The notes under the pieces were generated by a model that was given only the letters and a program-made list of their open reading frames with translations, ran no database searches and was not told where the DNA came from. Shown here piece by piece: positions 1 through 62,700 of a stretch of DNA of 64,000 nucleotides. The stretch's first letter is position 1, and each line of letters opens with the position of its first letter. Source of the DNA: Eledone cirrhosa (Eukaryota); NCBI GenBank assembly GCA_964016885.1, contig OZ024748.1:4402001-4466000 (forward strand), in the 5' to 3' direction. The position numbers and the translations under genes are program-made.

Positions 1-2944
1 TACTTATATAGAAACACATGTACCCCAACTAAGAGTTATGCACGTACGAGCTCTCTCTCTCTCACACACACATACATGGATATACATGATGACTCATGTA
101 TAACTTATGAATTAATGTATATCATAATTATCAGCTTGCACGCGCAATGTTACAACAAACACACGCATTTATAGAAAGGCTTAGACACACGTATCTCATA
201 TGCATGTATCCTTATATTAATTTTAATATATATATATACACGTATATATATATATGTATATAAATATATATATATATATATTACACACACACACACACAC
301 ACATATATATATATATATATATATATATATATATATATACATGCATATTGTGTATATGTATGTATATATATAAACATCTATATCTATATGTATGTTCACA
401 TACGCATATTAAGTATATATACATACCATATATAAATCTATCTATCTCTCTCTCTATATATATACACATAGGCATATTATATATATATGTATATATATAC
501 ATATATATATATATTATGCCTATGTGTATATATATAGATAGATAGATAGATAGATAGATTTATATATGTTATGTATATATACATAATATACGTATGTGAA
601 TTATACGTCCATTATTACTCCCACGTGTTTTCATACGTAAAGTTTTTTAAAATTAATAATGAGATTGCACATATATATATATATATATATATATATATGA
701 AAAAAAAGTTAAAAATATATATGAAAAATATATACACGAAAGAAAACTTTCATCATATATATATATACATATATATACATACACATATATATATATATAC
801 ATATATATGATGAAAGTTTTCTTTTAAAAGTTATGCAAGCAGACAACAGAACTTTATCTTTCCTACCGCCACCAAACGAAGTATTTACAATAAATCGCTT
901 CATTAATTTTTCAATAAATTTATACCTAACATTATCCGAACATCGCACTGTAGATGACTTGCGGTCTGAAGTAATTGATGCACTTGAAAGTACAATAGAA
1001 AAATCAGCTGCAAAAATTGAGTGTTTGTATACGTGCAATGCATGTTCAATAAATTATATGCGTACTCATGTTGAATAATGTAAATATCATGATAATTTAT
1101 GCATTGAAAAATACTTATATGCTCTTTCACTTAGCGTTTTCGCACACCAAAACACACACACACACACACACACACACACACACACACACACACACACACA
1201 CACACACACACATATGTATATATGGTAGTTTGTGTGTGTGTGTATATATATATACATGCATAAATATCTATAGAAATGAAATATGTATTAATCTATTTAT
1301 TAACATATGTATTAATATATTATATACATACATAAATATATATGTATATAAGAACATATAAATACACACACAAACACATATATATGTATGTATATATATA
1401 TATATATATATATATATATATATATATATATACACATATATATATATATATATTTATATGTTTTATATATATATATTTATTTATTTATGTATATATATAT
1501 ACATATATATTATATATTTCTATAAATATTTATGCACGTATGTATATATCCATATATATATATATGAGTATATATATATATATATATATATATATATATA
1601 TATATATATATATATATATATATATATATATATATATATATATATATATATATATATACTCATATATATATATATATATATATACTCATATATATATTTA
1701 TATTTTTATATTTGAACAAAAATAAAAGAAAAAAACCAACAATAAATCAGATGGGAACGCGACAGTACAATGACGTTCTATATTAATTTAACGCTTGATG
1801 TAGTAGAGAAAGACTAATGACGTTTCGGACGTTAGTCCAACATCCGAAGATAGAATGAGTAATAGAAAAACTAATAGAGAGATAGACTAAAGTAAGAAGA
1901 GGACGTAACGGAGACATTTATTTTCTTGGCGGGAAAGCAGGTGCGAGTTATGTTAGTCATAGGTATGTATGCATGCATCTATGTATGTATGTAGTTAAAA
2001 TGTGACAAAATGATTAAAGCAAGGATTTCATAATATATATATATAATATATATATATATATATATATATATATATATATATATATATATATATATATATA
2101 TATATATATATATATATATATAATTTAATGTATAATAATCAATACAATATAATTAACTCATTACCAGAGGTTTACCGAATAAGATTCGTTCGTCGGTCAA
2201 GGCAATAAATTGCCTTGTCCGACAAACGAATGAGGACGTTTTTCGTATTCGTCTTATTCGGTAAACCTCTGGTAATGAGGTAATTATATTGTATTGTTTA
2301 TTATACATTAAATTTTGCTCTGGTACTTACATAGAGCACTCTTCACTCCTATGACTTTTTAAATTTTTAACGAAAACTTCAATATTTTATTTATATATAT
2401 ATATATAGATTCCGATATATATATAATAATATAGATTCCGATATATATATAATAATATAGATTCCGATATATATATAATAATATAGATTCCAAGCTGAGG
2501 ATCCGCTAAGGTGAAACAATAGTTCTCGGTATGGTGAACTAACTGTAACCACTTCTCTCTCTCTCTCTATATATATATATATTATATATATATATATTAT
2601 ATATATATATATGTATATATGTATATATATAAATACATATATACATATATGTATGTATATGTGTGTATATATATATATATATATATATATATATATATAT
2701 ATATATATACATATATATATGCATACACATATATACAACCATAATCTATGTATGTTTACATATATATATATATAAATATATATTAATAAATATATATATA
2801 TATATATAATATATATATATATATTAATAAATATATATATATATATATTAATAAATATATATATATATATATACGTGTCCATACACACACACTGACACAT
2901 GTATACATACATATATATATATATAAATATATATATATATATAT

Positions 2945-3090
2945 AACAAAGGAATTGTGGTAAGGAACCAGATGGATCATAACGCACCAGAGTACTCAAT
3001 ACTTAGGGTAGTAGAGTGGGAAATAGAGTAGAGTCCAGAAATAGCCGTCGAAACGGCTTGAGCTCTGCCGTCGGGGTCATACTTTTTCCT
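2945..3090 (+). mobile_element. TA-embedded short non-autonomous element, family D (likely PLE terminal-repeat derivative)
   Basis: Shared blocks GCACCAGAGTACTCAATACTTAGGGTAGTAGAG and GAAACGGC..GAGCTC..GCCGTCGGGGTC. Copies at about 4383-4585, 4986-5122, 6440-6495, 23880-23980, 34414-34570 and 56782-56941, nearly always within (TA)n. Confidence 0.75.
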
Positions 3091-59199: not shown

Positions 59200-59750
59200 C
59201 GGTGTAAAATATAAATACACATTCTTAAATATACACTTATATTAACAGTGTAAAATATATATAAATTCTTACAAATACACTTATATTAACAGTGTAAAAT
59301 ATATATAGACATTCATACATATATACTTATATTGACAGTGTAAAATTCATATAGACATTCATACATATACACTTATATACGCAGTGTAAAAAATATATAG
59401 ACATATTCATACATATACACTTATATTTGTTTCTACTCTTTGGCACAAGGCCAGCATATATCCCAGTGCATTACTGGTACTTTATTTTATCGACCCCGTA
59501 AGGATGAAAAGCGGGATTTGACGATAAAGGGCCGTAACTCTTTGCTGCAAATCATGGCGTCCGACTCTCTACCGATACTGTCAATCCAGCGTCCCTAATA
59601 CACTTATATTAACAGTGTAAAATATATATAGACATATTCATACATATACATTTATATTAACAGTGTAAAATATATATATATATATATATATATATATATA
59701 TATATATATATATATTCATATATATATACACTTATATTAACAGTGTATAA
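59200..59750 (+). repeat. ~45-bp minisatellite interrupted by a SINE
   Basis: ATACACTTATATTAACAGTGTAAAATATAT units. SINE 59428-59597 is flanked by ATACACTTATATT on both sides. Confidence 0.85.
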
Positions 59751-62700
59751 TATATATATATATAAAGACAGACAAAAAGAGAAATCTGTAATGAATGAAC
59801 GAATGAACGGATGGAGTAGATGGATCCGATCATAAAACTGTCAAAACGCCATATTGGCTTCGTACAAAATGGACGACATCAGCAAATTATACCACTTTAT
59901 AACATTGTATAGTGGTGATGATGGCGGTGGCGTGGTGGAGGTCGACGGGGTTGTGGTGACGGTGGTGATGATGGTGGTGGTGTTAGTTGTCGTGGTGGTA
60001 GATTTTGGTGTAGGAGTTGGTGTTCGAGTTGGTGCTGTTGTGTTGATTGGGGTAGTTTTAGTGGTAGTGCCAGTAGTGGTGTTGGTATGTCTTGTAGTAA
60101 TAGTGGTATTAGTAGCCGTCGTAGGTTTGCTAGTAGGTTCTGCTGATGGTAGTAGTTGTCATTATTTCATCCCCTCAAAATCAATCAAGTATTAGAGTCG
60201 ATACAATCGATTATATTTTCAATAAATAAATAATATATGTATATATATATACACACACACACACACATATATATATATATATATATATATATATACATAT
60301 TATTATACGTACATGGACAAACCCGCCAGGGTTAACTTTGCCTTTCATCCTTACGGGGTCGATAAAATAAAGTACCAGTAATGCACATATATATATAATT
60401 ATATATATATAATTGTTTCTACTTTTGGCACAAGGCCAGCAATTATTCCAGTGCATTACTGGTACTTTATTTTATAGACCCCGTAAGGATGAAAGGCAAA
60501 GTTAACCTCAACGGGATTTGAACTCAGACCGTAAAGGGACGTAACTATGCTGGAAAGCATGGCGTCCGACCCTCTACCGATACTGCCAATTCACCGCCCT
60601 AATTATATATATATAATTGTTTCTACTTTAGGCACAAGGCCAGCAATTATCCAGTGCATTACTGGTATTGGGTAATTGCTGGCCTTGTGCCTAAAGTAGA
60701 AACAATTATATATATATAATGAATGCTAATGAATGCTTGTTTGTCCATGTATGTATAATTTATATATATATATATACACACAAACAATGAATATTTCTCT
60801 CTTAAATAACTAAATGTTATAAATCTCTCTCTCTCTCTCTCTCTCTCTTTCTCTCTTTTTCCCCCTCTCTCTCTCTCCTTTTCTCTCTCTACCTCTCTCT
60901 CTCTCTCTCTCTCTCTCTCTGTCTCCTCCCACCAATCCTCTCATTTACCTCAACCACAAAACGATGAAAAATAAAACAAACACAGAAATCATAAAAAACT
61001 CTCCGTAATAGAAAGGCGTCTCATCCCGCCCCCTCATCTATCCCATAAATCCCAATAAAATGCCCTCCTCTCTTCTCCACCGAAGCCCATCACAACCCCA
61101 CAGGAAATTTATAGACCATATTGTAGTGTCAAACAAATTGTCACTGTCTGGCTATTTTTCTTTTGGTCCCCAGTCAGCCAAACAACCCAGCAAACCTCTC
61201 ATAGAAATTCTACACGGTGTTTTATTACAAGACACAAGACCCGTAAAGAAATTATGACCCCTATGAACCTCCCCTTATCATCCCATATACATACTTTATA
61301 TACAATTACCCAATTGCTAACCATTTTCGCCCCATTCAATCAAGAAGCACCCACCCACCTTTTCACAGAATTTTACAAGGTGTTTATTGCACACAAGACC
61401 CCTAAAAATAAATTATGGCTCTTCTCACCATCTTCACGTCACTCCACACTCAACACTCTACTTAATACATAAATGTCCAATAGCTAATTGTTTTGTCACT
61501 CTCAAAGACTTGCCGCCATTTTTCACGAACCCAAAGTTTCAAATACAGCTAACAGAGTAAAGGAGAAGAGAGCCTTTATGTAGTCGCCCGATACACTAAA
61601 CATGACAGCTAAATCTCTCTAAAATTATACCCATACTGGCCTAAATAAGCCTCTATTTCTGGGGTCCCTGTACATAGGAAAAGGCATGGAATGGCCACGG
61701 ATGGAAATACCTTGATCATAGACCTGCTCTTTGATCATATGATTGACCTAGGGCTAAAGAAGAAGAACAATAACAAAATCTAAATCTAGCCGATAGAGGA
61801 GCTTATATGTGGGAGCTCCACCTGCTAAAAATGACAGTCAAATATCCTCAAATTACCTTATTGTCTTAAAGATATAAACGGAGGATATGCGATAATGTTC
61901 TTTTTACATATGCCTAAATAAAAGACGAGAGGGTCACGGCTGGAATGTATATTATTCTACATCGTCTTGATCATGCCTGACCCTGGGCTAAACAATAACA
62001 ACCATCTCTACTTTCTGTGACATTTAACTGCTTTTTATTAGCCCTAAGTAGCCCTAAGTAGAACCCTAAAGAGATTGTGGTGGGACTTTACACACAAATA
62101 AATCCCTAATTATTGATTATATTGTCCCTGTCAAACCCTATCACTTCTTTTTACACAAGATTTTACTGTTGTTTATGGGACACTAGAGTCAAAAGATATA
62201 GCTCCTCTATATACACTCATCACATGACATATTAATGTCGAACCGTCGATTTATATGGCCACTGTCAAACACCAACCAACTTCCAGAAAATATAATATAT
62301 GTATGATGTTTATTACACACAGGAAACCTTTTACAAATAGAAATAAATATAATTACGATCACACATCCCTATATATAAAACACCTCATTAGTGATTGTAT
62401 TTCTACTGAGAAGCTCCCATACATTATTTACGAAATATTATACCAATTTATTACACACAAAACCTTATATATAGAGGTTACAGCCACAGCACAGCTTTTA
62501 CAAAATACCACTGTTATTTATTACATACAAAATAAAGGAGTCGATGGTCATTTCGGATCAAAGAGACCATGTATCTATTGGTCTTCAAACTGTTGATATT
62601 ATCTGCTGATCACAACTCCCGATAGAACGAGGATCCCCACCAGCGACGGCCTTAGCAATTTATTTGTTCCCTCAGCTGAGCTTTTTAGTTTTAGGATGAT

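Follow-up and report, generated by a model that had tools for sequence, protein, structure and literature searches.

We analyzed a 64,000-nucleotide (nt) stretch of the Eledone cirrhosa genome (contig OZ024748.1 of assembly GCA_964016885.1, positions 4,402,001 to 4,466,000; hereafter the window, numbered from its first letter) that carries ten long palindromes. Eight of these are probably the 5'-truncated 3' ends of several families of Penelope-like elements (PLEs), made when both strands of the target prime reverse transcription. The eight represent five unrelated families of short 3' ends with PLE-like anatomy; of the other two, one (60601) is a similar but separate event involving the commonest repeat of the window, which we take to be a short interspersed element (SINE), and the other (51834) is an unrelated lone element present in a single copy. 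Directly visible in the sequences are the head-to-head geometry of the arms, outer ends on (TA)n, 3' ends at two discrete sites in each family, tails confined to one of the arms, and varied turning points.

Ten palindromes from seven unrelated families

All ten intervals put forward in the original prediction as near-perfect inverted repeats match their own reverse complement in self-alignment (each is named here by the first position of its interval), and a scan for exact inverted seeds outside microsatellites found 11 inverted clusters in the window against 0 in each of 30 shuffles. That scan recovered eight of the ten; the palindromes at 29440 and 47957 were missed there and recovered by self-BLAST. 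Window-wide Rfam and inverted-repeat scans were dominated by (TA)n. Arms are 42 to 167 nt long and mostly 87% to 98% identical (106/108 at 10250, 41/42 at 20843, 44/48 at 29440, 58/67 at 47957, 56/57 at 48581, 69/77 at 4381, 52/54 at 60601, and 154/167, with 10 gap nt, at 21361); the arm alignment of 51834 includes 34 gap nt, and the left arm of 2121 carries a 21-nt deletion.

The prediction that most palindromes sit in (TA)n also held: with the tail described below counted as part of the insert, (TA)n lies within approximately 20 nt of both outer ends in nine of the ten (background, 15% per end), 51834 being the exception. The palindromes are not, however, built from the same mini-elements, as had been proposed, because self-BLAST separates them into seven unrelated sequence families. 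Family A comprises 10250 and 21361, which are only approximately 70% alike, and family B comprises 29440, 47957, and 48581; families C, D, and E are represented by 4381, 2121, and 20843, respectively. Further head-to-head insertions were found at 2946, 4988, 34416, 36484, and 56784, and probably at 36184 (weak), giving 14 (one weak) among the approximately 23 insertions of these families counted in the window.

Anatomy of the head-to-head insertions

Throughout families A to E, the arms point outwards and their 5' ends meet at the center; one arm ends directly on (TA)n at the proximal 3' end, and the other runs 50 to 100 nt further, to a distal 3' end, before reaching (TA)n. This extension, the tail, recurs in other copies of families B and C and is therefore part of the element. 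Among the 11 PLE-type insertions with overlapping arms, a single tail is present in ten and two tails in none (p = 0.006 versus 0.5). The junctions between arms lack (TA)n. The targets are AT-rich or (TA)n, and target-site duplications are unreadable inside (TA)n. Together, the head-to-head joints, one-sided tails, and (TA)n support the link drawn earlier to the inverted, truncated termini of PLEs. Of 16 tails examined, 12, drawn from all five families, open with an RCTC..GAGY hairpin (background, 2.5%), which, as a motif picked post hoc, is a candidate binding or initiation signal for the reverse transcriptase (RT). It sits 3 to 14 nt past the proximal start (e.g., 48555-48570 and 2317-2337). 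The peptide VLSTL, which recurs in the tails of families B and C, was rejected as a coding clue because in-frame stops precede it.

Family A forms palindromes at 10160..10524 (arms of approximately 100 nt, a spacer of approximately 70 nt, and a 90-nt tail on the left arm) and 21361..21795 (167-nt arms and a tail of approximately 98 nt on the right arm). The 10250 spacer aligns only weakly as part of the right arm, 46 of 1000 shuffles being as good. At 36184..36372 lies a family A body with a complete hammerhead (36274-), and its remainder may be a reversed tail, a weak match that 39 of 1000 shuffles equal in score. The segment 9872-10032 was dropped before counting as a further reversed-tail insertion, 96 of 1000 shuffles having scored as well; it is a single insertion between (TA)n runs with a complete type I hammerhead (9937+, 8-base-pair [bp] stem I, palindromic helix III).

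The family B palindrome at 29365..29536 has a tailed left arm that ends just before the GAAA of the hammerhead and a tail-less right arm that reaches the core, approximately 17 nt further 5'. An older palindrome at 36484..36662 has a tail-less left arm that also reaches the core and a tailed right arm that begins in stem II. At 48507..48694, the palindrome is a 54-bp perfect duplex with a 74-nt tail on the left arm. The last member, at 47945..48141 (palindrome 47957-48090), turns 6 to 7 nt upstream of its cores (48017- and 48030+) and is flanked by a partial tail on the left and an abutting family E fragment on the right, an exception to the one-tail rule.

Family C occurs as a palindrome with 77-nt arms and an internally deleted tail on the right arm (4381..4586); as two insertions pairing a tailed long arm with a 19-nt inverted arm that starts at the predicted ribozyme cut site (34416..34570, inverted arm 34416-34434; 56784..56940, inverted arm 56922-56940, one mismatch); and as two insertions in which a reversed tail is joined to a tail-less body, with approximately 5 nt of overlap at 2946..3090, which is head-to-head and not palindromic, and zero overlap at 4988..5122. 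The family D insertion at 2122..2392 has arms at 2122-2314 and a tail of approximately 78 nt on the right arm only, and the family E palindrome at 20757..20942 has 42-nt arms and a tail of approximately 87 nt on the left arm.

The two arms of one insertion belong to the same subfamily, matching at 100/101 and 93/94 positions compared with at most 78/101 to other copies. This argues against two independent insertions landing back to back, as do the junctions free of (TA)n and the predominance of head-to-head copies. The clustering of these elements in (TA)n and the unequally diverged arms of 36484 (29/38 to each other) would fit such coincidences, which we nevertheless regard as highly unlikely. 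In families B and C, the arms are no more alike than dispersed copies and thus give no sign of selection for pairing.

Five palindromes (2121, 4381, 21361, 47957, and 48581) turn symmetrically on loops of a few bases. Turning points vary among copies of one family (4 in the window and 11 listed in the reads described below), and most lie at the upstream edge of the hammerhead fold or in stem II. Non-autonomous DNA transposons of the kind known as MITEs (miniature inverted-repeat transposable elements), that is, fixed palindromes inserting at TA, would account for the TA context and the palindromic shape, and would suit 51834 and an element at 56305-56665 better than the others. Families B and C have neither fixed terminal inverted repeats nor a fixed interior, and their variable junctions largely refute this explanation for them; the ends are asymmetric, and head-to-tail tandems and single-arm copies occur. 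As an account of the palindromes, it is very improbable.

Asymmetric junctions argue for priming by both target strands

Fold-back copying, the origin suggested in the original prediction, supposes that, at a natural hairpin, a single cDNA folds onto itself and is then copied to give the mirror arm (for rotifer PLEs, an antisense template has been proposed in this role). It accords with the symmetric centers and few-base loops of the five palindromes named above and with the shared subfamily of paired arms, and it is the published reading of PLE junction palindromes (PMC3846280). Such copying can place in the mirror arm only sequence that the primed arm also contains. The tail-less arm extends approximately 17 nt further 5' than the tailed arm at both 29440 and 36484 (10250 is weakly alike), and at 2946 and 4988, the two parts share almost no sequence, which excludes simple fold-back at these four loci and contradicts it wherever it could be checked. 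Dual priming explains the same four loci together with the palindromes. As the general origin, fold-back is unlikely, but it may still operate for the symmetric subset.

Under dual priming, a PLE enzyme combining RT and GIY-YIG domains would nick both target strands. Priming by one strand would begin at the distal start site and yield the tail, and the second strand would prime at the proximal site, probably with the same RNA as template; the one-tail rule suggests that the two priming events are coordinated, most simply on one RNA. A distal copy stopping at the proximal site would leave a reversed tail joined to a body and no palindrome, and one reading through would cause the shared stretch to be copied twice, forming a palindrome. 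Whether by stalling or because the RNA has a 5' end nearby, both copies would tend to halt within the hammerhead fold or immediately upstream of it, and short added letters or a few complementary bases would link the cDNA ends, in many cases within the ribozyme fold and for the most part away from the cut site. The double-stranded RNA (dsRNA) hairpin would be a by-product.

Reads and contigs from other samples

A single tailed arm of family B (48507-48662) was compared with four runs, yielding 6810 matching contigs in X1, 5338 and 5567 raw restriction site-associated DNA (RAD) reads in X22 and X23, respectively, and 29 contigs in X4, from another organism. X1, X22, and X23 derive from one organism (organism A); X1 may be the source of the assembly, and X22 and X23 are other samples from another study. 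In X22 and X23, the family B reads stop on (TA)n at either of two positions lying 66 nt apart, 48508-9 (332 and 272 reads) and 48574 (435 and 548 reads). The 15 joints listed, of 22, comprise 11 strand changes, 3 head-to-tail joints, and 1 joint linking the core with the predicted cut site. Each of the 11 strand changes has an end at 48626-48635, the other falling at 48616-48619 (6), at 48629-48635 (3), or in the tail (2); the last are reversed tail-to-body joints (48552/48635 and 48560/48632). Eight of these 11 listed opposite-strand joints occur in all three organism A runs. Head-to-tail joints of 48640 to 48577-81 (X22 and X23, one also in X1; family B only) define a unit of approximately 77 nt. 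Such units, in X1, X22, and X23, each hold one hammerhead. Retrozyme monomers are larger than this. A metagenome pattern scan for family B returned 0 matches.

These records bear on whether the palindromes are assembly or read fold-back artefacts, as might be suspected from the near perfection of 48581 and from the lack of any record that spans a single locus with 31 letters to either side (two X4 contigs run across the 48581 center but have fewer than 31 letters on one side and were excluded from that count). The class of joint is itself genomic: the same joints appear both in one study's contigs and in the raw reads that another study obtained from two samples, the arms differ by substitutions and indels, and the symmetry ceases at element-defined ends. 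Because the same family shows two start sites, head-to-head joints, and tandems in other samples, it is not a product of assembly, and we consider an artefactual origin extremely improbable.

Predicted hammerhead ribozymes and their relation to the turning points

A type I hammerhead descriptor matched 14 cores in the window (null mean, 1.04), six of them with a stem I of at least 5 bp (null, 0.01), one of which (49703) lies outside these families; stem III lengths for family A were inflated by a loop-size flaw in the descriptor and were left unused. A type I hammerhead near the 3' end is present in families A and B, partial in C and E, and non-canonical in D. Both arms carry the CUGANGA..GAAA core in four of the ten listed palindromes (10250, 21361, 47957, and 48581), and stem I is complete on both arms only in 21361, where cores at 21603+ and 21455- give complete type I folds. 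In 10160..10524, the core at 10427(+) has an 8-bp stem I and a predicted cut after 10475, and that at 10347(-) has its stem I cut to 3 bp. The cores of 48507..48694 lie at 48634- and 48641+, the left arm having its predicted cut between 48596 and 48595. The palindrome at 29440 has a single degenerate core; 4381 and 20843 have the 3' half only, consisting in the former of GAAAC, stem III with a palindromic loop, and GUC (predicted cuts after 4514 on the plus strand and 4401 on the minus strand) and in the latter of the GAAA half; 2122..2392 has a putative hammerhead-like topology with a non-canonical core, a look-alike; and 51834 and 60601 have none.

The motifs of family A are complete, combining an AUA triplet with a very small helix III. 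In family B, the reference has a private base at 48636, and the missing upstream strand of stem I was found in the reads (A at 48636 in 970 of 994 X22 reads); with this strand supplied, stem I has 6 bp, stem III has 4 bp and a palindromic loop, and the triplet is GUA. The three-way junction is recovered when the left arm of 47957 is folded, and covariation is seen in stem I when subfamilies are compared. The motifs of families A and B have U at position 11.1, in many cases facing another U, so that the usual G10.1-C11.1 pair is not formed. Family C retains only GAAAC, stem III, and GUC, all of its long arms ending before any core.

The palindromes had been described as turning within or just 5' of the hammerhead, giving back-to-back ribozymes on both strands. 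The first part applies to families B and C but not to 21361, which turns approximately 73 nt upstream of its cores, indicating that the ribozyme is not required for the turn. As to the second, cores occur on both arms in the four palindromes above, with complete folds in one; but folding of two palindromes over their full length predicts a sense core that is fully paired within the hairpin in either orientation, so that such ribozymes would be silenced rather than doubly active. Transcription always reaches the antisense arm before the sense arm, so that the ribozyme would likely be silenced in read-through RNA.

The original prediction further held that reverse transcription turns at a ribozyme-defined end, which in its strict form means that cleavage sets where copying stops and turns. 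The best hint is that the short arms at 34416 and 56922 start at the predicted GUC cut site, and one X1 contig (depth 153) joins 48595, the predicted family B cut site, to the core. Most turns lie elsewhere, however, and most arms run through the cut site; this site is also the base of stem I, so that stalling or pairing of the 6-bp stem I would give the same junction, and uncut RNA is the main substrate in vitro (PMC11167929). Cleavage as the defining event is accordingly decidedly improbable. A combined scheme, in which a dimeric Penelope enzyme uses each start site of one RNA once per strand and hammerhead cleavage sometimes sets the copying stop, is quite unlikely; were it true, self-silencing ribozyme hairpins would be mass-produced and could supply a large share of the long dsRNA available for editing, and cleavage by PLE hammerheads in vivo would have its first genomic footprint in the window.

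Two further loci carry related motifs. At 2392-2565, another hammerhead-like core (2495+) is preceded by a 26-nt unit repeated 3.9 times, which copies its upstream bases plus (TA)n and resembles repeated short template jumps. Two related repeats at 11690-11795 and 19813-19886 have CUGAYGA and lack the downstream GAAA.

Evidence weighing against dual-strand priming

Several observations tell against dual priming of PLE ends. Assignment to PLEs is likely on structure, with no RT parent in the window: no PLE RT or GIY-YIG gene was seen among the window's open reading frames of at least 90 amino acids (inspected by eye; seven scanned with Pfam). Rfam reported no hammerhead at threshold, the best hit scoring 18.7 bits against 48.5, and no family C copy in the window has a hammerhead core. 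The one-tail count falls to 6 of 7 if restricted to families B and C, 47957 breaks the rule, and no second copy of the D, E, or 21361 tail occurs in the window; at 50 to 100 nt, the tails also exceed the 30 to 40 bp in print. The symmetric turns of five palindromes are equally well explained by snap-back self-priming. Finally, for the commoner family B subfamily, joints are visible only within approximately 48613-48640, and 704 and 745 reads extend beyond the ribozyme on its upstream side, so that the clustering of joints at the ribozyme is suggestive and not proven.

Potential for dsRNA and Hox gene context

Predicted hairpin energies range from -39 to -222 kcal/mol, and four of 11 contain a perfect duplex of 48 to 88 bp; the surrounding (TA)n arrays form self-complementary stretches far longer than the palindromes. 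The arms bear no A-to-G signature (mismatches A/G 13, C/T 16, and A/T 17 of 69, with the 2121 alignment mis-gapped), and DNA reads on 48507-48662 have no excess mismatch class. In published work, small interfering RNAs (siRNAs) match inverted Penelope regions in flies (PMC3681739), and heavy editing is described for a lizard Penelope, a palindromic frog repeat, and octopus RNA overall (PMC5625713). By such precedent only, a role as editing or siRNA substrates is plausible.

A Hox-type first exon lies on the minus strand at 14490..15476, with YPWM at 14549 and a splice donor at approximately 14490, the homeobox exon being outside the window. Three palindromes had been placed in the intron of Hox3; they do lie downstream of this donor, but the Hox3 label is our presumption. 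Searches for Hox3 identity found no homolog among proteins of 180 to 576 amino acids, only chance PDB matches and weak homeodomain leads (sub-0.9). The intron occupies 23% of the window and holds 3 of the 10 palindromes, which is no enrichment. Just inside it, at 13546-14187, is a 99-nt unit repeated 6.5 times, in frame and 96% alike.

Other repeats in the window

The unrelated palindrome at 51834..52017 has no (TA)n, tail, or hammerhead and is directly abutted by a second hairpin with 33-bp arms (51756-51834), both lying outside (TA)n (51756-52017). At 60602..60720, two 3' ends of the commonest repeat meet head-to-head at a short natural hairpin, with (TA)n and without tail or hammerhead; across 60319-60720, pieces of this presumed SINE meet tail-to-tail and head-to-head around the same short A/T palindromic flank. 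The element at 56305-56665 has terminal inverted repeats of approximately 60 bp flanking two halves that look tRNA-like by eye and is 66% self-complementary overall; ARAGORN found no tRNA in it. Two 3'-end fragments of a long interspersed nuclear element (LINE; 24409-25480 and 42504-43390), approximately 93% alike where aligned, have the look of a zinc finger plus restriction-like endonuclease, with Pfam zf-RVT reached only at E 0.015; their clade assignment is presumptive.

Comparison with known systems

In L1 twin priming, the second target strand primes internally on the RNA, and the resulting 5' inversion, joined by microhomology, entails no duplication of sequence. The insertions at 2946 and 4988 match this pattern; elsewhere in the window, by contrast, read-through yields palindromes, and the second primer acts at a fixed site.

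The closest parallels are PLEs themselves, which typically insert into (TA)n and carry an inverted, 5'-truncated copy tailed at a single end (PMC8557442) and whose head-to-head junction palindromes in rotifer genomes have been read as self-priming (PMC3846280). The inverted pseudo-long terminal repeats of endonuclease-positive PLEs share with the window insertions the head-to-head 5' joint, the junction palindrome, the one-end tail, the AT-rich or (TA)n target, and partial tandems. The window copies differ in being only 19 to 170 nt long, so that the entire insertion is a hairpin, in their longer tails (50 to 100 versus 30 to 40), in including no ORF-bearing copy (ORF, open reading frame), and in junctions that favor dual priming over the self-priming proposed there. 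Repeat annotators could mistake such stubs for MITEs or microRNA hairpins.

The ribozymes resemble the minimal type I hammerheads of metazoan PLEs (PMC4209133), with the same CUGANGA plus GAAA core, a short or palindromic helix III, an extra base on the 5' side of helix II, and mostly solo copies. Families A and B have U at 11.1, where G10.1-C11.1 is conserved there, and family B further differs in its 4-bp stem III with a palindromic loop and its GUA triplet. The same source describes Schistosoma hammerhead pairs 100 to 700 bp apart on opposite strands. Non-LTR retrozymes (LTR, long terminal repeat; 10.64898/2026.07.22.740005) are likewise non-coding, PLE-related hammerhead units, comparable to the 77-nt head-to-tail units of family B; they are defined by tandem arrays with a hammerhead per unit, whereas the window copies are inverted pairs or singles. 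An octopus repeat annotation reports recently active Penelope families, and a term search found nothing in it about hammerheads or palindromes (PMC13282606).

PLE ends joined head-to-head, hammerhead pairs on opposite strands, and siRNAs from Penelope inversions are thus already published. A literature search by title and abstract for work joining twin priming and Penelope, with subscription papers and bioRxiv supplements outside its reach, found nothing on PLE mechanism. In vitro, the PAc protein of the anole Poseidon element cuts and extends both strands, two RT start sites bound its tail, and it acts mainly on uncut RNA (PMC11167929). Both strands, two start sites, and AT-rich targets agree with the window insertions; start sites do not differ between strands there, whereas the window inserts use each site once, and inverted insertions are not discussed in that study. 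What the window adds is a natural library of very short PLE junctions: dual-strand priming has been shown in vitro without being tied to inversions (PMC11167929), and these junctions argue for dual priming over fold-back.

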